64,000 bases of DNA from an archaeon (GCA_030636025.1 DAOVXQ010000002.1:10848-74847), one strand, 5' to 3'; shown: positions 4,376-40,777, counted from the first letter of the stretch. Made by a program: numbers and translations. Notes: generated from the letters alone by a model not told the origin.

Positions 4376-7339
4376 ATGAAATCAAAATTAGAAATCCCAA
4401 GATATTTTACAGAAGAAGGAAAGACACCTACTGATTCTTTTGACTGGATAAAAAGTAAGGTTGAAATTAAAGATAATTCTGGGAATTCAATTTATTCTGG
4501 AAAAGGATTAAAATTCCCTGATTTTTGGGGAGAACTACCAAGAAAAGTTGTTGCAAGCAAGTATTTTTATAGAGGGGATAGCGAGGATTATGTTGAAAAG
4601 GATTTAAGTAAGTTAGTTAAAAGAGTTACAGAAACAATATCTAATAGTGGGATTAAACAAGGGTATTTCTCTGGAGAAGATGCATCCAGACTTTCTGACG
4701 AAATTTCATATATAGTAATGGACCAAAGATTTGCCTTTAATTCTCCTGTTTGGTTTAATGTAGGATTATTTGAGAATTATGGAATAAAGGAAAAATCAAA
4801 TGGAAATTCATCTCACTGGGCAATTAATGAGCAAGGAAAATTTACTAATGAAATAGATGTTTATGAAAGACCCCAGGCATCTGCATGTTTCATTATGTCT
4901 ATAGATGACGACATGAGAAGCCTTATGAAACATTCTGAAAAAGAAGCAATGTTATTTAAACTTGGTTCTGGAACAGGGACTAATTATGGTTTGTTAAGGG
5001 GAGTTAGAGAACCCTTAAGTGGGGGGGGATATGCAAGTGGACAAACTTCTTTTATGAAAATATTTGATATTATTGCAGGAAGTGTTCAGTCAGGGGGAAA
5101 AACAAGAAGAGCAGCTAAAATGGTTATAGAACCTTGTGACCACCCAGATTTATTTAGATTTATTAATTGGAAAGTAGAAGAAGAAAAAAAAGGCCTTTGG
5201 TTATGTGCTAATCAAAGATGGGGTCCAAAAAGTTCTGGAGATTTAGAAAGTGAAGCATATAAAACTGTCGGGGGTCAAAACGGAAACAATAGCATAAGAG
5301 TAACTGATGAATTTATGGGGGCAGCCTTAAGAGGAGAAGATTGGAATTTATGGTTTATAACCGGGGACAGGTTTGACAATGAAGTAGAAATAGCTTTAGA
5401 AGATTATTCAGATGATAGATATCTTCCAGATAAAAGATTTATTAAAAAATTAACTAACAAGAAAAAAATAATAAATGCAGGAGAAGCTTTAGAACAAATA
5501 GCAAGGGCAGCAGCAGTTACAGGAGACCCTTCTTTACAATATGATAGCACAATAAATAAATGGCATACCTGCCCTAATTCTGGAAGAATAAATGCCAGTA
5601 ATCCTTGTTCTGAATATATGTTCATAGATGATTCTGCCTGCAATCTTGCTTCTCTAAACCTCACAAAATTTAGAGATAAAAACTCAGGAGAGATAATTAA
5701 TATAGATTCTTTAAATCAAGCAGTTAGAAATTCTATTATTGCACAAGATATTATTGTTGATTATGCATCTTATCCTGATAAAAAAATTGCGATAAACTCT
5801 CATTTATTTAGGGCATTAGGGCTAGGGTATACAAATCTCGGGGCATTATTAATGGAGAATGGAATTGCTTATGATTCTGATGAGGGCAGAGCAATTGCCT
5901 CTGCAGTAACTTCCTTGATGACTGCTCAAGCTTATCAAACTTCTGCTGAACTTGCATCTAAGATAGGTGCTTTTGAAGAATTTGAAAAAAACAAGGAGCC
6001 AATGTTAAATGTTTTAAAAATGCATCATGAAGAAATAAAAAAAATTAAAAGAATTAAAGAAGTTAAAGGATTAGAAACAATTATCGATGCTGCAGATAAT
6101 GCCTGGCAGGATGCTATTGAAAAAGGAGAGCAGTATGGATTTAGAAATGCGCAGGTTACTCTTCTTGCACCTACTGGAACAATTGGATTTATGATGGATG
6201 TTGATTGCACAGGAATTGAGCCAATGCCTGCCTTGGTTTATGACAAAGGACTTGCAGGAGGAGGAGAGTTAGAAATGAATATTAAACCTTGTGTTACAAA
6301 AGGATTAGAAACATTAGGATATAAACAAGAGAGATTAGAAGAAATATTAAGTTATGCGAAAGAAAATGGGACTATTGTGGACGCCCCCCATTTAAAGGAA
6401 GAGCACTACAATGTATTTGCTACTGCTTTTGGAGACAATACAATTTGTGTTGATGGGCATTTAAAAATGATGGCTGCAGTCCAACCTTTTTTATCTGGAG
6501 CCATCTCAAAAACAGTTAATCTCCCAAAAGGTGCAACAATACAAGATGTCAGAGATACCTATATCAAAGGTTGGAAACTTGGTTTAAAATCTATAAGTTT
6601 GTATATTGATGGTTCTAAGGGAGTGCAACCACTTAATATAAAAACAAAACAAAACGGAAAAGAATTAAAATGGGGTGAAAAAGTTAAACCTAGAAATCCC
6701 ATGATGCCTTCAGGATTTATAGAAAGACCAGGATGGAATGTTGAGATTGGGAGGAATGGAGTTCATTTAATGGTTGGAGAATATCCTGATAGGTCTCCAA
6801 AAGATTCTCCTGCAGACTTTTTTGTTGAGTTTGGAAGTGCAGGTTCTGAATTTAGTGCAGTTTACACTGACTGGGCAAAAGAAGCATCAAGAAATAGGCA
6901 GAGGGGCATGCCCTTAGATGAATTTATAAAACATAATAAATCATCTTCAGACCCTGTCAACGGTTTTACAGACCATCAATTTATAAAAAGTTGCAAAGGG
7001 ATAAAAGATTTTTTTATAAAATTGATTCAGTTAGAATACTTAGGAGATACAAGTGTTTGCGATGTTCAGCCAACAGATAAGCAATTAAGAGAATTGAGAT
7101 GCAATGTTTTGGCTGATAGAAGGAGAATTCGGCACTATCAGTCAAGAATAGACTTTATTGAATTTGCCATGGAAGACGGAGAATTAACAGAAATTTTTCC
7201 ACTATATGAAGATAAACTAAAATCTGGTGAAATGTCTGTTATGGATATTTTTTGTGTAAATTGCGGAAGTAAAACTGTTCCAAGCGGGGCTAACTGCAGA
7301 AAGTGTCCAAATTGTGGAGATTCTGCAGGTTGCGGTTAA
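4376..7339 (+). CDS. nrdJ: class II (adenosylcobalamin-dependent) ribonucleotide reductase
   Basis: NPCSEYMFIDDSACNLASLNL active-site motif and a C-terminal CxxC...CxxC tail. ATG 4376 is preferred over GTG 4370. Confidence 0.9.
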   Translation: MKSKLEIPRYFTEEGKTPTDSFDWIKSKVEIKDNSGNSIYSGKGLKFPDFWGELPRKVVASKYFYRGDSEDYVEKDLSKLVKRVTETISNSGIKQGYFSGEDASRLSDEISYIVMDQRFAFNSPVWFNVGLFENYGIKEKSNGNSSHWAINEQGKFTNEIDVYERPQASACFIMSIDDDMRSLMKHSEKEAMLFKLGSGTGTNYGLLRGVREPLSGGGYASGQTSFMKIFDIIAGSVQSGGKTRRAAKMVIEPCDHPDLFRFINWKVEEEKKGLWLCANQRWGPKSSGDLESEAYKTVGGQNGNNSIRVTDEFMGAALRGEDWNLWFITGDRFDNEVEIALEDYSDDRYLPDKRFIKKLTNKKKIINAGEALEQIARAAAVTGDPSLQYDSTINKWHTCPNSGRINASNPCSEYMFIDDSACNLASLNLTKFRDKNSGEIINIDSLNQAVRNSIIAQDIIVDYASYPDKKIAINSHLFRALGLGYTNLGALLMENGIAYDSDEGRAIASAVTSLMTAQAYQTSAELASKIGAFEEFEKNKEPMLNVLKMHHEEIKKIKRIKEVKGLETIIDAADNAWQDAIEKGEQYGFRNAQVTLLAPTGTIGFMMDVDCTGIEPMPALVYDKGLAGGGELEMNIKPCVTKGLETLGYKQERLEEILSYAKENGTIVDAPHLKEEHYNVFATAFGDNTICVDGHLKMMAAVQPFLSGAISKTVNLPKGATIQDVRDTYIKGWKLGLKSISLYIDGSKGVQPLNIKTKQNGKELKWGEKVKPRNPMMPSGFIERPGWNVEIGRNGVHLMVGEYPDRSPKDSPADFFVEFGSAGSEFSAVYTDWAKEASRNRQRGMPLDEFIKHNKSSSDPVNGFTDHQFIKSCKGIKDFFIKLIQLEYLGDTSVCDVQPTDKQLRELRCNVLADRRRIRHYQSRIDFIEFAMEDGELTEIFPLYEDKLKSGEMSVMDIFCVNCGSKTVPSGANCRKCPNCGDSAGCG

Positions 7340-9287: not shown

Positions 9288-9890
9288 ATGAAATTTCAAT
9301 ATAGATTATCGACTAAACAAATACAATCAATTATTTTGATTATTCTTTCATTTATCATTTATTATATATTAAGATTTCATTTTGAGAGCGCAGGTTTAGT
9401 TCTTTTGTATGTTGCATTAATAATGTTTGCATTTGGTGTAACGAATTTATTTGATGAATGTATGAAAAGATATAAAATATTAAGAGCAAAAGATACAGAA
9501 GATTATGATAGTCCAACAGAAGAAATAGTTGCAGATTATTTTAAAAGAAAGAATGTAAAATTCTATCTTCATCCAAAAGTTAAAGTTCCAACAAAAATAT
9601 GGAGATTTAACAATCCTTTTAAGAAAAGAACACTTAAACCTGATTTTTTCCTTCCACAATATAATGCATTTGTTGAGTATTGGGGTAATAATGGGGAAGA
9701 TTATGAAAGAAAAAGAAAACTAAAAGAAAAAGCATATAATGAAAATGATATAGAATTTATATCTCTTTCCAAGAGGGATTTGATTTATAATGGAAAATTA
9801 GATAGGAATAGATTAGATTGGAATTTTACTCAAAAACTACTTGATTTGATTAGAGAAAGAGAAGGAAATAATTTAGAATGGAAAAAATAA
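9288..9890 (+). CDS. membrane-anchored protein with a possible PD-(D/E)xK nuclease-like core
   Basis: N-terminal TM helices. KPDFFLPQYNAFVEYWG resembles the D...E.K core of DUF559/DUF2726-type nucleases. Weak. Confidence 0.3.
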   Translation: MKFQYRLSTKQIQSIILIILSFIIYYILRFHFESAGLVLLYVALIMFAFGVTNLFDECMKRYKILRAKDTEDYDSPTEEIVADYFKRKNVKFYLHPKVKVPTKIWRFNNPFKKRTLKPDFFLPQYNAFVEYWGNNGEDYERKRKLKEKAYNENDIEFISLSKRDLIYNGKLDRNRLDWNFTQKLLDLIREREGNNLEWKK

Positions 9891-10049
9891 ATTTTCCTCC
9901 AATCCCTTAATCCCACCTAAAATCCCCCCAAAAATCCACATCCAAAACATTTATAAACCTACTTTAAGATAATTTTATTATTATAAAGTTGTAAAGGTAA
10001 ATATCGCAAAATTTTTACATGCTTTTACTCTCTGCCTTAAACCCCAAAA

Positions 10050-30272: not shown

Positions 30273-30761
30273 ATGGTTAAAAGAGGTTTGTTTAAAAATC
30301 AGGGGACTGATAAACTTAAAAAAAGAGTTGGAATTGCGTTGGTGATTTTAATTTTTGCATTAATTATTTTCACAGGATATTTTTTGTTTTTTTATCCAAA
30401 AGTATGTTCAGATAGTGCTTGTTTTTCTGATGCAATGAGAAGTTGCAAACATGTTTCCTGGATTAAAAAAGATGCTCAGGCAGATTGGATTTATATAATT
30501 AAAGGAAATGCAAAAGGAGATACTTGTAAAGTTGAAGTTACGTTAAAAAATATGAAAGCGGGAACAATTGACAGCGAGGCATTGCAAGGCAAGAAAATGT
30601 TGTGCACTGTTTTAAAAAGTGAGACAAATTTTCCTGAAAAAGATATTTCTCGTTGTAGCGGAGAATTAAAAGAAGAACTGCAGGACAGGATTATCCAGAG
30701 AATGCATAGTTATCTTCTTGAAAATGTCGGAGAAATTCAAGAGGAGTTTGCAGGGATTTAG
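30273..30761 (+). CDS. N-terminally anchored Cys-containing hypothetical protein (162 aa)
   Basis: TM helix IALVILIFALIIFTGYFLFFY. TATA-like TTTTAAATA (30243-30251) lies 22 nt before the ATG. Confidence 0.45.
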   Translation: MVKRGLFKNQGTDKLKKRVGIALVILIFALIIFTGYFLFFYPKVCSDSACFSDAMRSCKHVSWIKKDAQADWIYIIKGNAKGDTCKVEVTLKNMKAGTIDSEALQGKKMLCTVLKSETNFPEKDISRCSGELKEELQDRIIQRMHSYLLENVGEIQEEFAGI

Positions 30762-31025
30762 AAATGTGTTTGATGTTTGTGGTTTAATATTGGAATTTAG
30801 AGAAGTTTTTGCGAAGCAAAAATTTGGATGGAGAAAAAAGGATATTTTTCTGAAGATTTGAATATCTGTTAGTTTCCTCGAAAACTTGGAGAGCTAAATT
30901 TTAGTGCAAGGTTCCGAAGGAAAAATTTTCATTTCCAATCAATCCTGCGTTAGCAGACTATATTTTTTAAAGTCAGGAGTGTTCTATCTATGGGGTCTTG
31001 GCGGTACTTCTAGAACAAGAATAAA

Positions 31026-31700
31026 GGGGCTTTGGTGTTTTTTATGTTTGTTTTGAAGTTATTTATCATTTAATAGTAGTTATAATGGCGAAAGGTTTAT
31101 AAAGAACAATTTTATACTACCCATAAGTACGATAAGTCTAGATAAAATGGCAAAATATCAAAATTTACCCGATGGCCACAGTGCACTCATAGTTGGAGCT
31201 GCAGGAATGGGAACGCCTTCTGAATTACATTTGTTATTTGGAATAGGTAAGTTATATTTATATGGGGATGAGGCTGAACTTAGAACAGAGGGATTTGAAA
31301 AAGGAGTTGTAAAATATGCATATACTTCTATTCTTAATGGAAAAACTATCAAAATTGGAGTAATGCCCACTGTAGGTTATGGTGAAAGAATGGGTATCGA
31401 AATTCCTTTCAGTTCTAATGAAAAATTTTTAAATAAGGGTATTGATAATGATGTAATTCTCAATAGATGGGGTAACCCTGGAAAATACGATGGCAGAGCT
31501 GTTGTTTCTACTGCCACATTGAAAGAAGGCTTATTTACGGATGAAGGTGTTTGTATAGACGAATTAGTGAGACAAAATGTATCTAATCAAGGTGTTCTTC
31601 TCCATAATCACGGTCAGATTTTAAATGAACGATTATCTCAATTATTATATGATTTTCAATTAGGACAAGGACAATTTGAAAGGAATTGATCCAAAGCCCC
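31026..31700. repeat. inverted-repeat-bounded unit enclosing ORF 31147..31689
   Basis: GGGGCTTTGG (31026-31035) and CCAAAGCCCC (31691-31700) are a perfect 10-bp IR. The right arm starts 2 nt after the stop codon. Confidence 0.7.
31147..31689 (+). CDS. 180-aa hypothetical protein
   Basis: Clean ORF with TTTATAAA at 31096-31103. No family recognised. Confidence 0.45.
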   Translation: MAKYQNLPDGHSALIVGAAGMGTPSELHLLFGIGKLYLYGDEAELRTEGFEKGVVKYAYTSILNGKTIKIGVMPTVGYGERMGIEIPFSSNEKFLNKGIDNDVILNRWGNPGKYDGRAVVSTATLKEGLFTDEGVCIDELVRQNVSNQGVLLHNHGQILNERLSQLLYDFQLGQGQFERN

Positions 31701-31778
31701 CTTCCAAATTTAGCCCCCGACTTCTTAAAAAGTGAAAATTCGATTTTGTTTAACATCGGGCTTAAACAACCCGAAGGG

Positions 31779-31834
31779 CTCGAGGTGGAGGAAGATTTTT
31801 TGAGGCAGACCACAAAAAATCTGACGACCTCGAG
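31779..31834 (+). other. extended 56-nt hairpin in a structured spacer
   Basis: CTCGAGGT/ACCTCGAG (8 bp) closes AGATTTTTTG/CAAAAAATCT (10 bp). Confidence 0.5.
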
Positions 31835-31958
31835 GCTAAGAAATTTGGGTCAAAATCGGGAAATCGCTTGGCGATTTAGCGTAAGCGACCGATTTTGCCG
31901 TTAAATTCCGGTTAGTTTCTTTTTCCATACAAAGTATGGAAAAATTTCGTCCGAAAAG

Positions 31959-32549
31959 TCACGAGAACGCCGTTTTCGAGGGCGAAGCCCAATAAAACAA
32001 ATACCCCGAGGGAAGGAAATTTTCATTTCAGAATAGTTACAATGGAAATATTTAAAAAGTAGGTTCTATTCATCTTACCTATGAAAGATTCATTATTGGT
32101 ATTAGATGGTTCAGGAGGTGCTGCCGCTTCTGTAGGTTATCATAGAGAAGGCACCCATATGGGTGATAATTTAGGAAGAACCATTGAATTAGTAGATTCT
32201 ATAACAGAAGCAGAAGGGGCTTTAGAAGAAAGCTCAAATAGACCTTTTGGTGCTGTTTTGACAGAACCTATGATGTACTTTTTCAGAAAAGGAGATTTAT
32301 CAGAATATCAGGATTTTCTTAAGAGTTTAAGAACAGAAAGGGAAATCCCTGTTGTTATATATTCATCTCAAAAGGAAGATGTAGTAAATCGAGAGTTTGG
32401 TCTTGTAAAAGGAGTACATTATAATGTATATACACCAAAAGGAATTGCAGCAGAAGGAGAATCTGGTGCAGAACTCATGGTGAAGACAATAGAACAATTA
32501 TTACCTTCTTGAATTTCCTTCCCTTTCTATTTTTTAGGCGTTCTCGTGA
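31959..32549. repeat. double inverted-repeat-bounded unit enclosing ORF 32081..32512
   Basis: The outer IR is TCACGAGAACGCC (31959-31971) / GGCGTTCTCGTGA (32537-32549). The inner IR is AGGGAAGGAAATT (32009-32021) / AATTTCCTTCCCT (32512-32524), which overlaps the last base of the stop codon. Confidence 0.85.
32081..32512 (+). CDS. 143-aa hypothetical protein, possibly a degenerate receiver-like (CheY-fold) domain
   Basis: LLVLDGSGG..., AVLTEPMM, IPVVIYSSQ and TPKG loosely follow the REC strand pattern. TATA-like ATATTTAAAAA lies about 23 nt before the ATG. Confidence 0.4.
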   Translation: MKDSLLVLDGSGGAAASVGYHREGTHMGDNLGRTIELVDSITEAEGALEESSNRPFGAVLTEPMMYFFRKGDLSEYQDFLKSLRTEREIPVVIYSSQKEDVVNREFGLVKGVHYNVYTPKGIAAEGESGAELMVKTIEQLLPS

Positions 32550-32563
32550 TTGAAACTAACATC

Positions 32564-32629
32564 AGGATTATGAGAAGTTTGCGAAGCAAATTTGGGAAAA
32601 TTCCTGCAAGGGATTTTCCTCATAATCCT
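32564..32629 (+). ncRNA. candidate 66-nt three-helix structured RNA element
   Basis: The closing stem AGGATTATGAG/CTCATAATCCT encloses hairpin TTTGC-GAA-GCAAA and hairpin GGAAAAT(T)CCT-GCAA-GGGATTTTCC. Confidence 0.3.
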
Positions 32630-32684
32630 TGTTATATGAGGGTGAGCGTAACGTAGTGAAGCGAAAGTGCAACGTCCCCTTGAG

Positions 32685-32922
32685 TTTCTGAGCACACCTA
32701 TTTTCGGTATTTAAAAACTAAGAATACACCTGTGACCAAAAGCAATATTGCCATTCCAGTCATTATCCATCCATAAGTTTCTGGCATATGATTGGCAATA
32801 ACACCAACCAGAGTACCAAGACCTGCAAAAAATAACCCAATTCCTTGTTTTTTGTTTATTGATTTCATAATTATTATTTATTAATATATTAGTTATTAAA
32901 AAGCTTTCGGTGTGCTCAGAAA
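32685..32922. repeat. inverted-repeat-bounded unit enclosing the small minus-strand ORF 32698..32868
   Basis: TTTCTGAGCACACC (32685-32698) and GGTGTGCTCAGAAA (32909-32922) are a perfect 14-bp IR. One arm overlaps the stop codon. Confidence 0.85.
32698..32868 (-). CDS. 56-aa two-TM membrane protein (below the ORF-track cutoff)
   Basis: Translated by hand as MKSINKKQGIGLFFAGLGTLVGVIANHMPETYGWIMTGMAILLLVTGVFLVFKYRK. More plausible than the overlapping 86-aa track ORF. Confidence 0.45.
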   Translation of the reverse strand: MKSINKKQGIGLFFAGLGTLVGVIANHMPETYGWIMTGMAILLLVTGVFLVFKYRK

Positions 32923-33019
32923 TTTCATATAACATGATGGAAATAGAACTAAACTTCTGTTTACATCCCATAAGGGTATGTTTAGTAACCTTTTTATAAT
33001 GCCTTGTTTTTATAATGGT

Positions 33020-33823
33020 ATGGATGGCTTGCTCAAGAAATTAGAGGAGAATTTAAAGTTAAAAAATTATTCTCAGCAAACAATTAAATCTTATCTCAAT
33101 CATGTGGGGAATTATTTAAAATTTGCAAAAAATAAGGGGGTTAATCTGTTAAGTGTAAAAGAATTTTTAATAAAAAAACTATCTAAAAATGAACCTTCTT
33201 CAGTCGGACATAATGTTTTTGCTTTGAAATATTTTTTTAAGGAAATTCTTCATCAAGAGATAGAAATCCCTAATCCAAAAAGAAATAAAACAATCCCAGA
33301 AATTTTAACTATTAATGAAATCAAAAAACTAATTAATTCAACAAATAATATTAAACATAAATTAATCATCAAATTACTTTATGGTTGTGGTTTAAGGGTT
33401 TCTGAAATTGTTAATTTAGAAAATAACGATTTAAATTTTGATGAAGGATTGATTCACATTAAATTAGCTAAAGGTAAAAAAGATAGATTTGTTAAAATTC
33501 CAGATTCTATTAAAAAAGAAATAAAAAGTTATTGCAATATAAATAATTCTAAAATTTTATTTCCTTCAAATCGTAGGGGAAAATTAACAACCAAAACAAT
33601 TCAAAAAATAGTTCAAAATTCTGCAAAAAAAGCAGGTATTAAAAAAAGGGTTTATCCTCATCTTCTTCGGCATTCTTTTGCAACACATCTTCTTGAACAA
33701 GGAACTGATTTAAGAATTATCCAAAAATTATTAGGGCATTCGGATATTAAAACAACACAGATTTACACCCATATCTCACAAGCAAACATTAAAAATATAA
33801 ACTCTCCTTTGGAGAATATATAA
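33020..33823 (+). CDS. tyrosine recombinase, XerC/XerD/XerA-like
   Basis: GLRVSEIVNL (Arg I), HLLRHSFATHLL (H-x-x-R) and LGHSDIKTTQIYTH (catalytic Tyr). Start at MDGLLKK is preferred. Confidence 0.85.
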   Translation: MDGLLKKLEENLKLKNYSQQTIKSYLNHVGNYLKFAKNKGVNLLSVKEFLIKKLSKNEPSSVGHNVFALKYFFKEILHQEIEIPNPKRNKTIPEILTINEIKKLINSTNNIKHKLIIKLLYGCGLRVSEIVNLENNDLNFDEGLIHIKLAKGKKDRFVKIPDSIKKEIKSYCNINNSKILFPSNRRGKLTTKTIQKIVQNSAKKAGIKKRVYPHLLRHSFATHLLEQGTDLRIIQKLLGHSDIKTTQIYTHISQANIKNINSPLENI

Positions 33824-33825
33824 AA
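33782..33825 (+). repeat. 44-bp direct repeat, left copy (last 14 codons of the recombinase gene, including the stop, plus 2 nt)
   Basis: GCAAACATTAAAAATATAAACTCTCCTTTGGAGAATATATAAAA matches 37663-37706 at 43/44. Confidence 0.9.
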
Positions 33826-33848
33826 TAGAACGGGTGTTTTAATTAGTG

Positions 33849-34505
33849 TTATTTATTTTTTCTTTCCTCTATCTTATCTTTTAATAAATCCCAAAGTTTA
33901 TCTGTTATTTTTTTTGGAGCTTTTATTTTAAATTTTTCATTTAATTTTTCCAAAAAATACCCTAATTCAAAAATTGCCTTTTTCTTACCTAAATCATCTT
34001 GATTTTTAGCTTCTTCCACAATCAGCTCCCAATTAACTTCTGTGTTATTTATTATATTTCTTGCATCATCCAAATCTTTCAACCTATCTGTTGCACACTT
34101 CATCAGGATTATATCGTGGAGGTTTGCAATTTTTAATACTAATTTGTCTCCAAATTGATGAGTCTGGTTGGCTCTTTTTTTCATATTTTCTGAAAACATA
34201 AAATCTATAACTTCTTCAACAAACAAATCAAATCTTTCATCGCCCAAGGTTAACATTTCTGGTCGATTAGCTCTTCCTCCGTAAACGATTACAGAATCCA
34301 TTTCCTTATAACCAAGAGATTTTATGGCTTCTTTAAAATATGTCTTATCAATCTGATTTTCAAAAACTAAGTCTATATCCAATGTTGTGTCTTTTAAGCC
34401 CAAAAACATCATCGCGGTTCCTCCAACTGCGTAAACGGTAATCTTTTTCTTTAATCTTTTAGATATTGCTAATAATAATCCTTGTTGTCTCTCTATTGAA
34501 ATCAT
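33849..34505 (-). CDS. nucleotidyltransferase, AbiEii/DUF6036-like toxin candidate
   Basis: YAVGGTAMMFLGLKDTTLDIDLVF matches the GG.A......R.T.DID NTase motif. Overlaps the upstream partner by 4 nt. Confidence 0.6.
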   Translation of the reverse strand: MISIERQQGLLLAISKRLKKKITVYAVGGTAMMFLGLKDTTLDIDLVFENQIDKTYFKEAIKSLGYKEMDSVIVYGGRANRPEMLTLGDERFDLFVEEVIDFMFSENMKKRANQTHQFGDKLVLKIANLHDIILMKCATDRLKDLDDARNIINNTEVNWELIVEEAKNQDDLGKKKAIFELGYFLEKLNEKFKIKAPKKITDKLWDLLKDKIEERKNK

Positions 34506-35122
34506 TTGTAAACCTCCAAATCTGCTTTATTAAATGGAATGTAAATTTTCCATGTTTTTTCAATTTCATTAAAATCTTTTGACCTTAAATTAGGAATAAT
34601 ATATACAAACTTTTCTTTTTGTTTTGGAAGGGAATTATTCCTAAATCTTTTTGCCATTTTTCTTGTTCTCATAATTTTTCGGGATAAATCATATAGTGCT
34701 CCAATTTGTCTTTCAACATAATTTTTTTTCCCTAACTTATATAATTCCCCCCAATTTTCTATTTTTTTAAATAATGCCAATGAAGCCAAAATTATCCTTA
34801 ATCTTTTTGATTTAATAGCATATACCAAGGTTTCTTCCAAACTTGGTTTTTTCCCATAAATTTTATAGACTTCAGAGGTCATTATTTTTAAAGGAGAATT
34901 TTTGTTTATTATGCCCTGGTAACTTTCGCCCCCTAAGCGATTTTCAAAGGAGATGTTATATATTCTTTTATTATCACTTAATTTTTTTGTTTTAACATAC
35001 CCTGCCTTACGCAAACGATGAACATAATAAATCGCTTTATTTTTATCTACATTTAAAAGAGTTTTTACAGACTCTATTGTTTGATTTCCTTTAATTTTTC
35101 TTAAAACTAATTTTATATCCAT
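34502..35122 (-). CDS. winged-HTH protein, AbiEi-like antitoxin candidate
   Basis: N-terminal wHTH-like segment (ESVKTLLNVDKNKAIYYVHRLRKAGYV). Sits upstream of and overlaps the NTase. Internal start MDIKLVL is preferred. Confidence 0.45.
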   Translation of the reverse strand: MDIKLVLRKIKGNQTIESVKTLLNVDKNKAIYYVHRLRKAGYVKTKKLSDNKRIYNISFENRLGGESYQGIINKNSPLKIMTSEVYKIYGKKPSLEETLVYAIKSKRLRIILASLALFKKIENWGELYKLGKKNYVERQIGALYDLSRKIMRTRKMAKRFRNNSLPKQKEKFVYIIPNLRSKDFNEIEKTWKIYIPFNKADLEVYK

Positions 35123-35445
35123 AGTTAAATGTAGCTTAAGTGATATATAAGGCTTTCGTTTTTTTCTTATTATAACTTCAATGTAGCCCATATGTTTAAA
35201 GGGTCTTTTTTTAGAAATATTAAGCATAACATGCGCAGATAAAAGAAGTTTCTTGAAAAGAAATTTGGATGGAGTCTGCAAGGCGTAGTCTCTTAATCGC
35301 TGTTCACAGAAGTTTTAATTTTTCTTTTCAGGTTGGGCTGACGAAGTCGCATTATATTAGCGAGATTGCCCGCCGGTTTTTTTGCTTCTTTTTGGGGTGA
35401 AAAAGAAGATTTGGGAGTTCGCTTGTTTTTATGCTTAGAATAAAT

Positions 35446-36156
35446 TTAAATGGACAAATCTAATTTATTGATTAGTTCAATTATCTCTTGGGGATCTTTG
35501 TCATCAATTTCTTTCTTGTTTTTTACTATATGATACTTAGAGTGGGTTTTATCATTAGCATCATCTTTAAACTGACTCGCCTTTTGAGCTGTTCTTTTTA
35601 CAAGTCCTGCTTCTGGCCCAAAATCTGCAGCCTTCTTGTGAAGATTTTTCAAAATTACACTAAAATCTAAAAAACGATTTCTATCAAAGTCCCAGTAAAG
35701 CTCTCTCTCTGACTTACTGGTTCCAGAGTATTTCTTTCTTATTATACCTATAAGAAGGTTCTCGAATACTTTCCTGCAGAGTATAAAAGAGCTAGTGTAA
35801 CATCCATGAGTATATGTTTTATTAACTTCTTTTATGTGTTCTTTTATAAAATAATCTGTAGTTTCAAATTTAATAAGTTCAATAATTTTCTTTTTAGGTG
35901 ATTTCTTATTCGCCTGTTTAATTTTTATTGGCTTCTCTATCTCAATACTATTGGGTAAGGTTAGCCTATCTTTCTTTGTTAGTTTGCCGGCAACTGAAAA
36001 TCCCCTACTCTGGGCAAAAAGTTGCGCGGCCGCATTCTGTGTAGCCTTAGGACATTTAGTGTTTTTTAATGTTGAAACAGCATTTCTAATTGACTGCTCA
36101 CTCATTCCGGTTTTTCCCTTTAGAATTTCTAATATTTTTGGATTAAGATTGCCCAT
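35446..36156 (-). CDS. DUF4145-like protein with an N-terminal HTH-like region
   Basis: C-terminal HGCYTSSFILCRKVFENLLIGIIRKKY...DDANDKTHS resembles DUF4145. Last gene of the HTH-minigene operon. Confidence 0.4.
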   Translation of the reverse strand: MGNLNPKILEILKGKTGMSEQSIRNAVSTLKNTKCPKATQNAAAQLFAQSRGFSVAGKLTKKDRLTLPNSIEIEKPIKIKQANKKSPKKKIIELIKFETTDYFIKEHIKEVNKTYTHGCYTSSFILCRKVFENLLIGIIRKKYSGTSKSERELYWDFDRNRFLDFSVILKNLHKKAADFGPEAGLVKRTAQKASQFKDDANDKTHSKYHIVKNKKEIDDKDPQEIIELINKLDLSI

Positions 36157-36162
36157 TCTCTA

Positions 36163-36366
36163 CTAGAAATCACGCCTATCAATACCAGTTATTCTTTCAA
36201 GTTCTCTCTTGCTTAAGGATCCAGTATAATTTCTCAATATTTTTTTCTGATCCTCCTTAGTTTTGCCGTTCAGAGAAGTTACTAAAATAAGTAGCTCCAG
36301 CTTATTGTTCATTTCCTCAAGCAGTTCTTTTTCAGACTTTTCTTTAGGCTTTGTCTTTTTTGACAT
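36163..36366 (-). CDS. small HTH protein, paralogue 6 of 6 (67 aa)
   Basis: NNKLELLILV helix followed by SLSKRELERITGIDRRDF. Confidence 0.55.
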   Translation of the reverse strand: MSKKTKPKEKSEKELLEEMNNKLELLILVTSLNGKTKEDQKKILRNYTGSLSKRELERITGIDRRDF

Positions 36367-36574
36367 TTTTCTTCTTCCTCCGTTTGTTATTTATTGATTT
36401 GGAAAAATTGCTTAGGTCTTTATTTAACATTCTTGCAGTTTCTGCCATTCCGAGACAATCAGAAGCTATTTTCAACTTCTCTTTTTCAGGAAGGTCTTTT
36501 TTACATTCAAGTAAAATTAGGCACTCTAGCCTTTTCTTTATGTCACCTAGTATTTCTTCATTTTCGCTTGCCAT
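36344..36574 (-). CDS. small HTH protein, paralogue 5 of 6 (76 aa)
   Basis: KKRLECLILL helix followed by CLGMAETARMLNKDLSNFSKSI and a basic tail. Confidence 0.55.
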   Translation of the reverse strand: MASENEEILGDIKKRLECLILLECKKDLPEKEKLKIASDCLGMAETARMLNKDLSNFSKSINNKRRKKKNVKKDKA

Positions 36575-36767
36575 TCATCCCCCCTTTCCATCCTGAAGTT
36601 CTCCTAACATTTGACAACCCGAGCAATTCTTCAATTTCGGAAGAATCAAACCCTGCCTTTCTCAGCATTGATATTTTCTTATCTTTATCTTTTATGTTAG
36701 AGATAGCAATTATCCCAAAAAGCCTATCTAGCTTTCCACATATAATTTTAAATTGATTGTCATCCAT
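36558..36767 (-). CDS. small HTH protein, paralogue 4 of 6 (69 aa)
   Basis: CGKLDRLFGII helix followed by AGFDSSEIEELLGLSNVRR. Start ATGGATGA overlaps the upstream stop by 8 nt. Confidence 0.55.
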   Translation of the reverse strand: MDDNQFKIICGKLDRLFGIIAISNIKDKDKKISMLRKAGFDSSEIEELLGLSNVRRTSGWKGGMNGKRK

Positions 36768-37008
36768 TTTTTTTGCCTTTCTTCTTTTTAGGTTTATCAT
36801 ATAGATAGCAAGACACATCACTCGCTTTACTTTTTCCAGTTATTTTTGCAATCTCTAGAGGACTAAGTCCTGTAGAATAAAGTGTTTTAACAAATGTTGT
36901 TTTGTCCATCTGAGGATTTGATTCAAAAAATAGTCTAATAAGAGCGTCTAATCTCTTCACAATTTCTCCTTTCTCATCAATTTTAATTTCTTCCTCTTTC
37001 TTACCCAT
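36760..37008 (-). CDS. small HTH protein, paralogue 3 of 6 (82 aa)
   Basis: VKRLDALIRLF helix followed by TGLSPLEIAKITGKSKASDVS. Start ATGGGTAA overlaps the upstream stop by 8 nt. Confidence 0.55.
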   Translation of the reverse strand: MGKKEEEIKIDEKGEIVKRLDALIRLFFESNPQMDKTTFVKTLYSTGLSPLEIAKITGKSKASDVSCYLYDKPKKKKGKKNG

Positions 37009-37222
37009 GTTTTCTTGCCCCCTTGGTTTTTGATAAAATGGCATTAACATAATTTTGCGTGGTATCTAATGCTTCTGCGATTTGCTTTGGCTTTAAACCC
37101 ATTTTTCTTAATCTAATTATTGAATCTGTTTGGGAGGCATTGGGATTTATGTTAGAATGTACATTAAGTTTAATTAAAAGGTCTAATTTCTCTAGTAATT
37201 CAGCTTCAAATTTTTCACTCAT
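37001..37222 (-). CDS. small HTH protein, paralogue 2 of 6 (73 aa)
   Basis: LEKLDLLIKL helix followed by MGLKPKQIAEALDTTQNYVNAILSK (LuxR/sigma-region-4-like HTH). Start ATGAGTGA overlaps the upstream stop by 8 nt. Confidence 0.6.
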   Translation of the reverse strand: MSEKFEAELLEKLDLLIKLNVHSNINPNASQTDSIIRLRKMGLKPKQIAEALDTTQNYVNAILSKTKGARKHG

Positions 37223-37394
37223 TTTTTCTAGGATACTTTTTTTTATCTATTAATTGGCTTACTTTTCCGGGAGAAACTCCCATGGCCTTGCCTATTGTTT
37301 CGTTGTCTACCTTTAGATTTTGTAAAAACAAAATCATTAAAGCTTTGACATCCTGTAATTCTTTCTTTACTTTTATTATTTCTGGGTTAAACAT
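37215..37394 (-). CDS. small HTH protein, paralogue 1 of 6 (59 aa, below the ORF-track cutoff)
   Basis: Translated by hand as MFNPEIIKVKKELQDVKALMILFLQNLKVDNETIGKAMGVSPGKVSQLIDKKKYPRKNE. Confidence 0.5.
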   Translation of the reverse strand: MFNPEIIKVKKELQDVKALMILFLQNLKVDNETIGKAMGVSPGKVSQLIDKKKYPRKNE

Positions 37395-37505
37395 CGATAT
37401 AAACCGAATATAATGTTTTTAAATGTTTCGCATCGCTAGCAGGTCTTATATTGTATTTAAAATATCTAAGAATTGCTTATTTTTGCTACTTTTGTTTCCT
37501 TAACC

Positions 37506-37528
37506 GAATATTCCAAATTGGAATATTC
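37506..37528. promoter_or_regulatory. perfect 23-bp palindrome upstream of the HTH-minigene operon
   Basis: GAATATTCCAA-A-TTGGAATATTC lies 112-134 nt upstream of the first minigene start (37394, minus strand). Confidence 0.5.
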
Positions 37529-37662
37529 TTAGAAACTCTCCCCGTAAATAGAAAAATTTGGGTGAACCGAAGCGAACTCTTTTATCCTTGGTTATGCAAA
37601 GTGCGAAGCATTTCGTTGGTTTTTTTCTTCGGTCGGATAAAGGAAGTTTTTGATTTCTAAAT

Positions 37663-37706
37663 GCAAACATTAAAAATATAAACTCTCCTTTGGATAATAT
37701 ATAAAA
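37663..37706 (+). repeat. 44-bp direct repeat, right copy
   Basis: GCAAACATTAAAAATATAAACTCTCCTTTGGATAATATATAAAA has one mismatch to 33782-33825 (G at 33814 versus T at 37695). Confidence 0.9.
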
Positions 37707-37712
37707 GAGAAG

Positions 37713-37880
37713 ATGGCAAACTTACAAGAACTGCAAATTTTGGCTCAATTATTAGATAATATGAATTTGGCTTCGGAAAAGTTGGAGAAATCGTATGGGA
37801 AAAATAATGCTGAGGATTTTAATTCTGCTAAAAAAGAAATTGCAGATATTCAAAATAAAATTTCGCAGGTTTTAAAATGA
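37713..37880 (+). CDS. 55-aa coiled-coil protein leading the pilus operon
   Basis: MANLQELQILAQLLDNMNLASEKLEKSYGKNNAEDFNSAKKEIADIQNKISQVLK. Its stop overlaps the next ATG (ATGA). Confidence 0.35.
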   Translation: MANLQELQILAQLLDNMNLASEKLEKSYGKNNAEDFNSAKKEIADIQNKISQVLK

Positions 37881-39235
37881 ATATTGAATCTTTGAAAGAA
37901 AATATAATGCACTCTAAGGAGATAGTTAGAGAGATATATGTTTTTACAAATCAGCTGGAAATTATCAAAGAGCTCGAAGCTGAGAGCAAGGCAGTTATTG
38001 ATTCTAAGGAAAAAAAACTTTTGAAAGAGGTTATTGAATCTTTGTTTGTTCAGTTGAAAATTTTAAATAAATCTGTTCCAGACCTAATACAAAACATTGG
38101 TTTTTTCAAGAAATTTCCCAGCGACAAGAAAGAACAGATTAAACCAAAAACAAATCTTGTTCAGATAAAATACAAACCAGCTAAAACAGAACCTAAAGTT
38201 TCTTTGACAATTAATGAGGCAGACAGAAAAATATTTTTGGAAAATCTGAGCAAGAGCAATCTTTCTATTTATCAGCTTAAAAAGAAATTTTCATCTGAAA
38301 AACCGATTGAGGTTAATTTTGGGAGGGCAAATTCTTATGCGAAAATATCAAATAAAATTTTTAGAGGTCTCTCAAATAAACTAGCTGAGAAAAATTATTT
38401 GGTTAAATTAAATAAAAATTTGCGGAAAATGAATTCTCCTTTTATAGTTACATCCTATGCTTCAATGATTTTGTTCACCGTCGCTGTTACTGCGATTTTT
38501 AGTCTGCTCTTTTTGTTTTTATTAATGTTTTATAATGTGAGTTTTGCTTTTCCTTTTTTATCTCCTGTCGAGGAATCTTTTTTATTGAGATTTTCAAAAG
38601 TTTTTTGGATAATTTTTGCTCTGCCATTATCTGCCGGGCTTTTGATGTATTTTTATCCTTTTAGCGAGGGGAAAAATCTTGGTTCAAAAATAAATCAGGA
38701 ACTTCCATTTATTGCAATTCATATGTCTGCAATATCTATGTCTGGGATAGAGCCACTGAATATTTTTAGAATTATTTTGAAAAACAAAGAATATAAAAAT
38801 ACAAATATAGAATTTAAGAAACTTATGAATTTAATTAATTTTCAGGGTTATAATTTGGTTAGTGCTTTAAAGAAGATTGCTGTTTCATCTCCTTCCTCAA
38901 AATTAAGAGATTTGTTTAATGGTATGGCTACGGCAATAACCTCTGGGGGAGATTTACATGGATATTTATCTGAACATGCGAAGAGATTACTTTTTGATTA
39001 TAGATTAGAAAGAGAAAAGTATACGAAAACTTCTGAAACCTTCATGGATATTTATATTAGCATTGTTATTGCAGCGCCGATGATATTGCTGATTTTGTTT
39101 GTTATAATGGGGAGCACTGGAATGAGCTGGCTCGGACTTGATACAAATATTATTGGTTTTCTGATTATCTTAATTATCGCTCTCCTTAATGCAGGATTTT
39201 TAATATTCTTAAATTTAAAACAACCAACACTATAA
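37877..39235 (+). CDS. type IV pilus/archaellum platform protein (FlaJ/TadC-like, T2SSF domain) with an N-terminal coiled coil
   Basis: LPFIAIHMSAISMSGIEPLNIFRII...LVSALKKIA...GMATAITSGGDLHGYL together with polytopic TM segments. Confidence 0.65.
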   Translation: MNIESLKENIMHSKEIVREIYVFTNQLEIIKELEAESKAVIDSKEKKLLKEVIESLFVQLKILNKSVPDLIQNIGFFKKFPSDKKEQIKPKTNLVQIKYKPAKTEPKVSLTINEADRKIFLENLSKSNLSIYQLKKKFSSEKPIEVNFGRANSYAKISNKIFRGLSNKLAEKNYLVKLNKNLRKMNSPFIVTSYASMILFTVAVTAIFSLLFLFLLMFYNVSFAFPFLSPVEESFLLRFSKVFWIIFALPLSAGLLMYFYPFSEGKNLGSKINQELPFIAIHMSAISMSGIEPLNIFRIILKNKEYKNTNIEFKKLMNLINFQGYNLVSALKKIAVSSPSSKLRDLFNGMATAITSGGDLHGYLSEHAKRLLFDYRLEREKYTKTSETFMDIYISIVIAAPMILLILFVIMGSTGMSWLGLDTNIIGFLIILIIALLNAGFLIFLNLKQPTL

Positions 39236-40104
39236 TGAAATCAAAGCTTTTGCGGAAACTTAGAATAAATAAATCAAAAATAATTGGGATTAGCATTGCT
39301 TTGGCCACAATTATACTTTCGTTAATTTTTTTAAGGGGAACGGATATTTTTTATTTTATTTTAGGGATTGCGTTTGTTATTGGGGGTTTGCCTTTTTTTG
39401 TTTCATTAATTTTAGAAGGAAATAAAGAGAGAGAGAAAGATGAGATGTTTTTGGAATTTTCGAAAAATTTGGTTGAGAGTGTCAGGGCAGGGATTCCGAT
39501 TAGCAAGACTATTTTGAATATTAGAACTAAAGATTACGGACCGTTAAATCCTTATGTTGACAAACTTGCTAATCAGATTTCGCTGGGCATTCCTGTTAAA
39601 ACTTCTCTTGAGACTTTTGCACGAGACCTTAAAAGTAACACAATAACTCGGGCAGTTACAATAATCAGCGAGTCTGAGAAAGCAGGCGGGAAAATCGAGG
39701 ACATCTTAGATTCTGTTGCTAAATCTGTTGCGCAAGTTGAGAAATTGAAAAAAGAGAGGCGGGCGACAATGTATAATTTGGTTGTTCAGGGATATATTAT
39801 ATTTATGATTTTTATTATTATAATGTTAGTTATGCAGTTCAAGGTTTTGCCGATTGCCACGCAGTTGGGGGATATTGGTTCTGTTGGGGTCGGGATGCCT
39901 TCAATTTTTGGCAGTGGCGGAGAAAAGGCATCTGTTGAAGATTTGACAAAACCATTTAAATATCTTTTAATTGTGCAAGGGTTTTTTGTAGGATTAGTAA
40001 TTGGGAAATTATCTGAAGGAAGAGTAAAGGCAGGATTAAAGCATTCATTCATATTAGTTGCTTTAGCTATATTAATAAGCACAGGAGTTAAATTATTTTT
40101 TTAA
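39235..40104 (+). CDS. second T2SSF-domain platform protein (TadB/TadC-like)
   Basis: FSKNLVESVRAGIPISKTI...QISLGIPVKTSLETFA...SEKAGGKIEDIL flanked by TM helices. Confidence 0.65.
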   Translation: MKSKLLRKLRINKSKIIGISIALATIILSLIFLRGTDIFYFILGIAFVIGGLPFFVSLILEGNKEREKDEMFLEFSKNLVESVRAGIPISKTILNIRTKDYGPLNPYVDKLANQISLGIPVKTSLETFARDLKSNTITRAVTIISESEKAGGKIEDILDSVAKSVAQVEKLKKERRATMYNLVVQGYIIFMIFIIIMLVMQFKVLPIATQLGDIGSVGVGMPSIFGSGGEKASVEDLTKPFKYLLIVQGFFVGLVIGKLSEGRVKAGLKHSFILVALAILISTGVKLFF

Positions 40105-40105
40105 A

Positions 40106-40777
40106 ATGAAAAATCGAAACTCGCGTTCATGTTTTGTTGTTAAGAATACAATTTGTTCAAAGTCAAAACGCTCGCAAGCACATGTTGAAATAGTTTTGTC
40201 ATTTGTAATCTTTGTCGGGTTTTTATTAGTTATATTTCTTTTTCTAAATCCTTTTGCAAAAACACAGGAGATTTCTTTTATTGGAGGGATTGAAAGAGCA
40301 ATTATTAAAAATGTGAGTGCAGAGGTTGGAAAGTTGAGTGTGATTGTTGGAGAAATTGGAGATTGCTATTTTGTTGGTAATAATTATGGAGAGAATTATC
40401 AGGGTGTTTTGATTGGTGATAGAAAATATATTGTTTATTTTTCAGACGAGGTTTTTTCTGGGGGAAACCTTGGATGTTCTGATGTTGGAGATTATACTCT
40501 TGGTGTGTTTTCAAAAGAAGATATGATTGTTTATGATAAACTTGTTGAATTGAAAACAAATTATGAGGCAGATTATGATTCATTAAAGCAGTCATTTGGT
40601 GTGATGAATGGTTTTTCATTTAGTGTTAAGGAAATGGTCGGGGATGATTTGATTGTTCCAGATAATATTATGGATTCGCCGTCAGGGATTGAAGTTGAGG
40701 CGAAGAATATTTTAATGCGGGTTATTAAAAATAATGGTAGGATTTCAGAATGGGTAATGAATTTGAGAGTATGGTGA
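40106..40777 (+). CDS. pilin-like protein (class III signal peptide candidate)
   Basis: KSKRSQAHVEIVLSFVIFVGFLLVIFLFL has a basic region followed by a hydrophobic helix. Confidence 0.45.
   Translation: MKNRNSRSCFVVKNTICSKSKRSQAHVEIVLSFVIFVGFLLVIFLFLNPFAKTQEISFIGGIERAIIKNVSAEVGKLSVIVGEIGDCYFVGNNYGENYQGVLIGDRKYIVYFSDEVFSGGNLGCSDVGDYTLGVFSKEDMIVYDKLVELKTNYEADYDSLKQSFGVMNGFSFSVKEMVGDDLIVPDNIMDSPSGIEVEAKNILMRVIKNNGRISEWVMNLRVW

Follow-up and report, generated by a model that had tools for sequence, protein, structure and literature searches.

Background

Islands that are flanked by attachment (att) sites and lack recombination genes are found as cis-mobilizable elements (CIME) beside ICESt1 and ICESt3 in Streptococcus thermophilus. 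They appear to be the closest structural likeness to the locus described here, an islet of accessory genes lying at the 3' end of xerA, the Xer-type tyrosine recombinase gene of an archaeon, in a stretch of 64,000 nucleotides (nt) (GCA_030636025.1 DAOVXQ010000002.1:10848-74847). We refer to this whole stretch as the window and count all positions from its first letter, while L-numbers denote comparison loci from other genomes. As in a CIME, the islet has a direct att-like repeat at either side, with the 3' end of a conserved host gene forming one copy; it carries cargo only, and it would need a recombinase acting in trans. It differs in that no cognate integrative element or integrase is known and there is no evidence of mobilisation, and also in its DPANN host and in its target, the tail of a recombinase gene. 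Islands and proviruses in the 3' ends of tRNA or protein genes are likewise similar in their duplicated 3' end, regenerated gene and defence or toxin-antitoxin cargo, but the islet has no integrase beside either att site and no element backbone. Of the features expected from Campbell-type integration, the direct repeats that regenerate a gene end are present, while an integrase inside the element and beside an att site is missing.

Integrative mobile elements exploiting Xer (IMEX), such as CTX phage and the gonococcal genetic island, are another possible comparison (Xer/dif systems are reviewed in PMC5357621). The islet resembles them in having no integrase of its own and in lying beside Xer-related DNA. 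However, IMEX integrate at dif and are flanked by dif-like sites, and in these two of the three defining traits the islet departs from them, because it does not lie at the only site of dif geometry in the window and its flanks are not dif-like.

In archaeal integrases of the Sulfolobus spindle-shaped virus (SSV) type, the att site lies inside the open reading frame (ORF) of the integrase (PMC7253208; PMC8371274). Here too an att-like repeat is located within the ORF of a tyrosine recombinase, and its length of 44-49 bp is typical of archaeal att sites. The SSV integrase, however, belongs to the element and is split into flanking parts, whereas this xerA is whole, chromosomal and outside the interval. 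The SSV geometry would moreover need a third repeat copy to the left, and none exists in the window or within 33 kb to the left. The possibility that xerA is the element's own SSV-type integrase was rejected on this geometry and on the conservation of the gene across its clade. Concerning integrons, of which archaeal examples have been reported (PMC9668308), the likeness consists in a promoter-proximal capture of integrase-less genes beside a tyrosine recombinase gene, and NCBIfam calls the XerA family "tyrosine recombinase/integron integrase". Nevertheless, XerA is without the IntI-specific domain (TIGR02249 gives 216 against a cutoff of 265, in two stretches), and the insert is multigenic, is not bounded by attC and lies at the 3' end of a gene and not at attI. 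The islet is a known type of insertion, and the curiosity is its landing site in the recombinase gene's own tail. Our literature search found no paper treating XerA and DPANN together.

Results and discussion

Duplication of the xerA tail

The insert is a real insertion scar, an integrated non-autonomous islet with an att-like duplication. A sequence-only reading had proposed 44-bp direct repeats with one mismatch, the left copy being the last codons and the stop of the recombinase gene, and this description was confirmed: the 44-mer is found at 33782-33825, where the ORF ends at 33823, and recurs with one mismatch at 37663-37706, a match never seen in 100 dinucleotide-preserving shuffles. In both copies the repeat grows to 49 nt (33782-33830 and 37663-37711, plus strand), with 47 of 49 bases equal. 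Both mismatches (repeat positions 33 and 45) fall within the final 17 nt, so that the first 32 nt form a perfect core, and the edges are sharp, with similarity ending abruptly at both sides. The left, attL-like copy comprises the last 13 xerA codons (ANIKNINSPLENI), the stop and 7 nt, and carries GAG (Glu) and AATAGAA, whereas the right, attR-like copy is an orphan fragment of the xerA tail that has AAGAGAA and, encoded by GAT, the Asp of the family consensus. Upstream of the right copy, blastn-short and tblastn revealed no further xerA-like DNA or protein, and an in-frame stop lies 3 codons before it.

The target gene (33020..33823, plus strand) encodes 267 amino acids (aa); an ATG at 32978 would give 281 aa. 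Proteins were annotated with Pfam, NCBIfam and PADLOC models. Judging from its sequence, the product is a bona fide XerA of the DPANN/Pacearchaeota type: it matches NCBIfam NF040815 (recomb_XerA_Arch) with 250 bits (cutoff 220) and Pfam Phage_integrase with E=1e-45, and its catalytic residues R126, H214, R217, H240 and Y249 are invariant in the alignment of homologues. Look-ups of the exact protein, in both the 281-aa and 267-aa forms, found no record, while hundreds of proteins from Pacearchaeota and Nanoarchaeota metagenome-assembled genomes are 70-82% identical to it. This conservation indicates that the gene is the chromosomal recombinase of the clade and not the integrase of an element. 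The C-terminal tail, ISQA[NS]IKNI[KN]SPLDNI, is conserved as protein; a C-terminal helix has been reported as regulating recombination in XerA of Pyrococcus abyssi (PMC3646895). At the DNA level, species that share a residue also share its codon in a fraction of 0.57 over the final 13 codons, as against 0.51 over the 48 codons before them (40 species). Synonymous sites of the tail vary like those of the rest of the gene, which means that the tail is not a conserved DNA site, and the idea that the tail itself is dif was rejected for this reason.

Comparison with other species also indicated which of the copies is original. The live gene ends with SPLENI, its unusual Glu lying at 33812-33814 within the C-terminal tail, while the right copy encodes SPLDNI. 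At this position Asp is present in 119 of the 120 closest XerA proteins and Glu only in the protein of the window. In addition, the right copy is identical at 40 of 41 positions to the xerA tail and the five post-stop bases of another species (L007), as compared with 36 of 38 for the left copy. Both differences thus look derived in the left copy, and the right copy, which retains the ancestral state, looks like the displaced original end of xerA, being the better candidate on these alignments. This agrees with the sequence-only reading, in which an element had inserted into the 3' end of the recombinase gene and regenerated its frame. A derived left copy is consistent with an attL in which host DNA runs as far as the crossover and incoming DNA continues from there, but it could also result from two substitutions after a plain duplication.

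We also evaluated whether a chimeric join at the short repeat could have placed the block there during assembly. All assemblies derive from one sample, and the Logan graph (k=31) breaks exactly at the repeat. However, the 32-nt perfect core is shorter than the reads and than the final k of the usual metagenome assemblers, and the two copies differ at two positions, as two real loci would. The same structure is also present in a scaffold of the same sample in ENA, and this 56-kb scaffold agrees with the 103-kb NCBI contig except for one single-nucleotide polymorphism in 12.5 kb, located elsewhere. An assembly artefact is therefore very improbable.

Proposed integration of a circular, non-autonomous element

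The explanation that we tentatively prefer, with a confidence slightly short of even, is a Campbell-type integration of circular, non-autonomous DNA, with the recombinase acting in trans and the crossover inside the 32-nt core. According to this model, a circular DNA carrying a 49-bp look-alike of the xerA tail would have entered a chromosome of the Pacearchaeota type (DPANN), and strand exchange would have taken place inside the 32 bp that are perfectly shared. The attL (33782-33830) would then consist of a host left part and an element right part, completing the XerA frame with a conservative change from Asp to Glu, and the attR (37663-37711) of an element left part and a host right part, leaving the original Asp end before the pilus operon. 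The recombinase would have come in trans, none being identifiable here. Selection may have held both copies, the left one as it encodes the conserved C-terminal tail of XerA, and the right one as an A+T-rich sequence about 30 nt ahead of the start of the pilus operon and hence a candidate promoter of that operon.

In favour of this model are the clean and short duplication, the regenerated ORF, the one-sided mismatches, the ancestral right copy and the accessory nature of the cargo. Further points for it are the close fit of the modules to the repeats, the change of strand at the block, and the related xerA loci, none of which (55 loci) has its own tail duplicated within 10 kb. A parallel case of ordered insertion without an integrase may be the unit found at L027, described below. 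The islet as it stands is a single insertion scar, probably fixed rather than mobile. If the insertion was site-specific, DPANN archaea, which have tiny genomes and few recognisable mobile elements, would gain defence or toxin-antitoxin modules as att-flanked units without an integrase, and the tail of an essential recombinase gene could be a safe landing pad, because the insert rebuilds the tail.

The right flank is consistent with a tight original arrangement. The right copy had been placed directly before a pilus operon, and it ends 2 nt ahead of the ATG at 37713 of a 55-aa gene, the first of an operon (37713..40777, plus strand) that further encodes two T2SSF-domain membrane proteins (Pfam E=2.6e-12 and 5.8e-16) and a 223-aa protein. 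In many relatives no more than about 15 nt separate the xerA stop from the start of the following gene, often a topoisomerase gene; with the islet taken out, as in the reconstructed empty site, the 55-aa gene would begin 9 nt after the stop, which is equally tight. The order of the four pilus genes is conserved in 80 metagenome loci, but xerA lies within 8 kb of the operon in none of them and the upstream regions are not syntenic, so these loci offer no empty-site comparator. A tblastn comparison of the cassette and its flanking proteins with 80 xerA-type loci found no synteny either.

In the window (37671-37712), as at many of the xerA stops in L001-L053, about 30 nt lie between the next gene's start and the tail codons (AAAAATATAAA), which are rich in A+T. 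On this spacing the xerA tail may double as the TATA region of the downstream gene, which would explain the intact orphan copy on the right.

Cargo and its occurrence in other genomes

Between the repeats lie about 3.83 kb of accessory DNA with nine genes, all on the minus strand as the sequence-only reading had it, and this block breaks a long run of plus-strand genes. The genes form two unrelated modules of the toxin-antitoxin or defence type, arranged head to tail.

Module B, on the left, had been described as an AbiE-like pair. It consists of a winged helix-turn-helix (HTH) protein of about 205 aa (34502..35119, minus strand, taking the ATG at 35119 as start; called mechanically, the ORF extends to 35281), with weak HTH_27/TrmB matches, and of a 218-aa nucleotidyltransferase of the DUF6036 family (33849..34505, minus strand; Pfam PF19502, 25.3 bits against a cutoff of 23.6). 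The two genes overlap by 4 nt. Their architecture is that of such a pair, but Pfam and PADLOC gave no AbiE match and the second protein belongs to DUF6036, so that the term AbiE-like covers the architecture only. The nucleotidyltransferase is 60-92% identical to hundreds of Nanoarchaeota proteins, and its homologues are always preceded by a 206-aa partner, in varied neighbourhoods (L090, L091, L175).

Module A comprises a 236-aa protein (35446..36156, minus strand) and six overlapping, paralogous small HTH genes of 59-96 aa (36163..37394, minus strand), whose number was correctly given before and which have in common the pattern KLDxLIxL...GLxxxEIA and weak HTH_3/Tfx/HigA-type matches. The 236-aa protein, earlier called DUF4145-like, combines a small helical domain at its N terminus with a HEPN-like bundle of helices at its C terminus. 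The window protein has no Pfam match; its family shows faint DUF5677/DUF4145 matches, with one of 37 members hitting DUF4145 at E=0.008. Weak support for the label comes from the fold: when the AlphaFold model (predicted local distance difference test, pLDDT, 90.2) was compared with the PDB, the best matches were HepT toxins and two HEPN proteins (2q00, 2hsb); the probabilities were 0.97-0.98, but the E-values (0.3-6) were weak. An Rx4-6H-type motif was sought in the family, where H205 is invariant and N201 nearly invariant, with no canonical R before them. Homologues are present in archaea and bacteria, the bacterial ones being 40-50% identical.

The non-coding leader of module A (37395..37662, minus strand) contains a perfect 11-1-11 palindrome at 37506-37528 (GAATATTCCAAATTGGAATATTC), a plausible operator for the HTH minigene proteins, and over 37529-37651 the leader shares 76% identity with its counterpart in the L084/L085 module. 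At the junction of the modules (35120..35445), homology to L175 ends at 35211 and homology to L084 at 35311; the junction includes the G+C-rich non-coding tail of module A (35311-35445), and pieces of it match dispersed intergenic repeats of L084.

Both modules occur elsewhere. Module A, with 4-5 minigenes before the 236-aa gene, was found in L084 (L084:2884-4738, 83% DNA identity), in L086 (L086:9062-10711), where it lies inside a type I restriction-modification locus between hsdS and hsdR, and in L088 (L088:3376-4841), where it adjoins an MmeI-like enzyme, a nucleotidyltransferase pair and HicAB. Module B is 91.8% identical in DNA between window 33837-35211 and L175, a close relative from a different sample. 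Module B homology begins at 33837 and module A homology reaches 37651, so that foreign-module DNA comes as close as 6-12 nt to the repeat at either end. Repeats flanking these modules in other genomes show no consistent pattern: L084 has mosaic repeats of about 350 nt, and L086, L088 and L091 have none.

The operon of 4-6 tandem overlapping HTH minigenes (57-96 aa) together with the 236-aa protein is a recurrent presence in DPANN defence neighbourhoods, and the variation in minigene copy number between loci is unusual.

Evidence against the model, and a possible non-site-specific origin

Several observations weigh against integration of a circular element. The nine ORFs include no integrase, transposase, excisionase, replication or virion gene; that the cassette is without an integrase of its own had been anticipated, and scans with domain and hidden Markov models supported it. 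The window holds no paralogue of XerA. The insert has no match in phage and plasmid records, and in IMG/VR the 236-aa family is represented by one locus and the nucleotidyltransferase by none. G+C content, overall and at third codon positions, is within the host range, giving no signal of foreign composition. The cassette had been regarded as one unit, and it is indeed bounded by the repeats, but it joins two modules that other genomes carry separately, and there neither is accompanied by a sequence resembling the 49-mer or the xerA tail, so that no attP was seen. No second instance of such an insertion was found in 55 related xerA loci or in the 80 pilus-operon loci. The 23-nt repeat core has no match in IMG/VR and JGI metagenome contigs.

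A palindrome in the repeat had been put forward as a core recombination site. It exists, with 9 of 11 positions paired at the left repeat, 8 of 11 at the right one and a spacer of 3 or 5 nt, but it is unremarkable, since the region holds 5 recombinase-core-like palindromes against 5.3 expected. A 3,909-nt Logan contig (unitig) corresponding to window 33784-37692 was considered as a circle and rejected: it equals the span between the first and the last unique 31-mer between the 32-nt cores, its ends are the de Bruijn break of the 31-mer graph at the 32-nt repeat, and it is for this reason uninformative about a circle.

The arrangement in L175 also weighs against the model. The other flank of module B in that locus (L175:1-110, reverse strand) shows homology to the last part of the 162-aa gene in the window and to the start of the downstream spacer (window 30730-30875), with an alignment score of 51 against 27 +/- 4 in shuffles. 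Module B, from its 33837-33877 side, is there 79 nt from the homologue of the 162-aa gene, while in the window the two are 3 kb apart, across xerA; the position in L175 is without the window's 3-kb block of two ORFans, a 56-aa gene, the dif-like site and xerA. From these alignments it would seem that either the pair of winged HTH and DUF6036 genes moves about locally or it was the xerA block that changed place. This points to a local reshuffling of the modules and the xerA block, and an origin that is not site-specific stays alive.

Such an origin would be a local rearrangement or illegitimate recombination, in which the right copy is what remains of an xerA end that was duplicated or replaced, and the repeats never served as recombination sites. 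It might have arisen through a tandem duplication followed by deletions, or through a homology-facilitated replacement of the xerA region that spared the final 49 nt of the former allele. The reshuffling seen in L175 is its main support, together with the composite of two modules without mobility genes, the chance level of the palindrome and the lack of a known second instance. Furthermore, tails of different species can be 40/41 identical owing to coding and A+T constraint, and what remained of a different allele would therefore pass for a near-perfect repeat. We consider this origin unlikely, though a serious competitor. A short, exact and clean duplication that leaves both flanking functions intact is rare for random breakpoints, the two differences are confined to the same side of the perfect 32-nt core, and the tandem-duplication route requires two further precise deletions. 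The perfect 45-nt duplication around the independent insertion in L027, moreover, points to a recurrent and ordered process.

A candidate XerA substrate upstream of xerA

Outside the insert, a candidate XerA substrate is located at 32920..32965 (plus strand). It has the layout AAATTT-N5-AACA-N3 (AAATTG-N5-AACA-N3 in the motif shared with relatives) followed by an 11-nt arm, a 6-nt spacer and a second 11-nt arm, with AACA at 32931 and the arms at 32938-32948 and 32955-32965. In most relatives it lies about 90 nt upstream of xerA (89 nt in the window), and the same ungapped register is present in 42 of the 56 xerA loci formed by the window and 55 relatives (L003-L054, L081; for example L028:1-38 and L010:9893-9930). 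All 11 arm pairs show compensatory changes. Among loci pre-selected for at least 8 of 11 pairs, arms paired in 84.6% of cells, compared with 55% in shuffles (0/500 as high) and 24-54% with slid partners. The architecture was matched 30 times at the position upstream of xerA and 7 times elsewhere in 1.75 Mb, where 5 were expected. It is single-copy per locus, with one in the window, and for this reason a multi-copy attC-like site was rejected; a known RNA was rejected too, there being no Rfam family and no tRNA nearby.

On the basis of this geometry and covariation, the palindrome upstream of xerA is likely the dif site of the clade and a candidate XerA substrate. In streptococci xerS adjoins difSL, and the candidate site is similar in adjoining its recombinase gene. 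Thermococcales differ, their dif not lying beside xerA (PMC2958812), while the 11-6-11 geometry is that of archaeal dif (PMC2958812, PMC8371274). This site, with the neighbouring insertions in other genomes, is the more useful by-product of the analysis, as it provides a concrete substrate for studying Xer function and Xer-dependent capture in an uncultivated clade.

The site also allows one to evaluate a further explanation, namely that XerA itself acts at a secondary site in its own 3' end, having inserted the cassette and possibly still excising it, in an IMEX-like manner. XerA is the only recombinase in the neighbourhood, the repeat contains the imperfect palindrome, and XerA of P. abyssi is reported to bind unrelated stem-looped att sites with low affinity (PMC8371274). 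Integrase-less units are also inserted right beside the candidate XerA site in L010 and L027, making XerA-dependent capture of DNA plausible in the clade. We nonetheless judge this improbable. The repeat lies about 850 nt from the candidate site, and the best match of either copy to the 28-bp site core is 15/28 against a background mean of 14.5, with no half-sites at the cassette ends; the palindrome, given its spacer, is not of the 11-6-11 type. Across 40 species the tail shows no DNA-level conservation beyond coding, though XerA is 70-80% conserved, and it is a target in 0/55 relatives. Hence the analogy with Xer/dif and the proposed mobilisation by the adjacent XerA did not find support, and the comparison of the repeat with a dif/XerA-type site that had been suggested showed no resemblance above background.

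An extension of the same idea, in which xerA of Pacearchaeota would be a capture hub for integrase-less DNA, with the upstream site taking units with an AACA junction and its own tail serving as a secondary site where XerA inserts and could excise the islet, seems to us quite doubtful. If true, it would be an archaeal, Xer-dependent counterpart of IMEX or integron cassettes, with the coding tail of the recombinase as attachment site.

Insertions beside the candidate site

The units in L010 and L027 fit the IMEX pattern better than the islet does. L010 holds three copies, 100% identical, of a 213-nt unit without ORFs (5848-6060, 9471-9683, 9684-9896). A resident AATTG-N5-AACA immediately precedes each inserted copy, whose own end is AAAATTGCATAGAACA, and two of the copies are in tandem against the xerA palindrome. 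L027 has a one-gene unit of 1,632 nt without an integrase, flanked by a perfect 45-nt duplication (837-881, 2469-2513); the unit abuts the site upstream of xerA and rebuilds the adjacent gene's 5' end.

(T)AACA is the exact starting point of eight contigs that come from separate studies (L021, L024, L028, L029, L031, L037, L040, L049). To the left of the candidate site the DNA is a hot spot for insertions and forms part of dispersed repeat families. In the direction leading away from xerA, the AACA junction resembles the integron core site (GTTAAGT, GTTAAAC, GTTAGGC).

In the window, xerA is preceded by three ORFan genes of 162, 180 and 143 aa, with no Pfam family, separated by G+C-rich non-coding spacers of 190-390 nt (30762-31146, 31690-32080, 32513-32697). 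These spacers have mosaic blocks in common with repeats that lie between genes in other Nanoarchaeota (L084, L027), and they have no Rfam match. From its layout, the ORFan region looks like a cassette-like array. Within it, window 31752-31790 (TTTAACATC|GGGCTTAAACAACCCGAAGGGCTCGAG) reproduces the left junction of the L027 unit.

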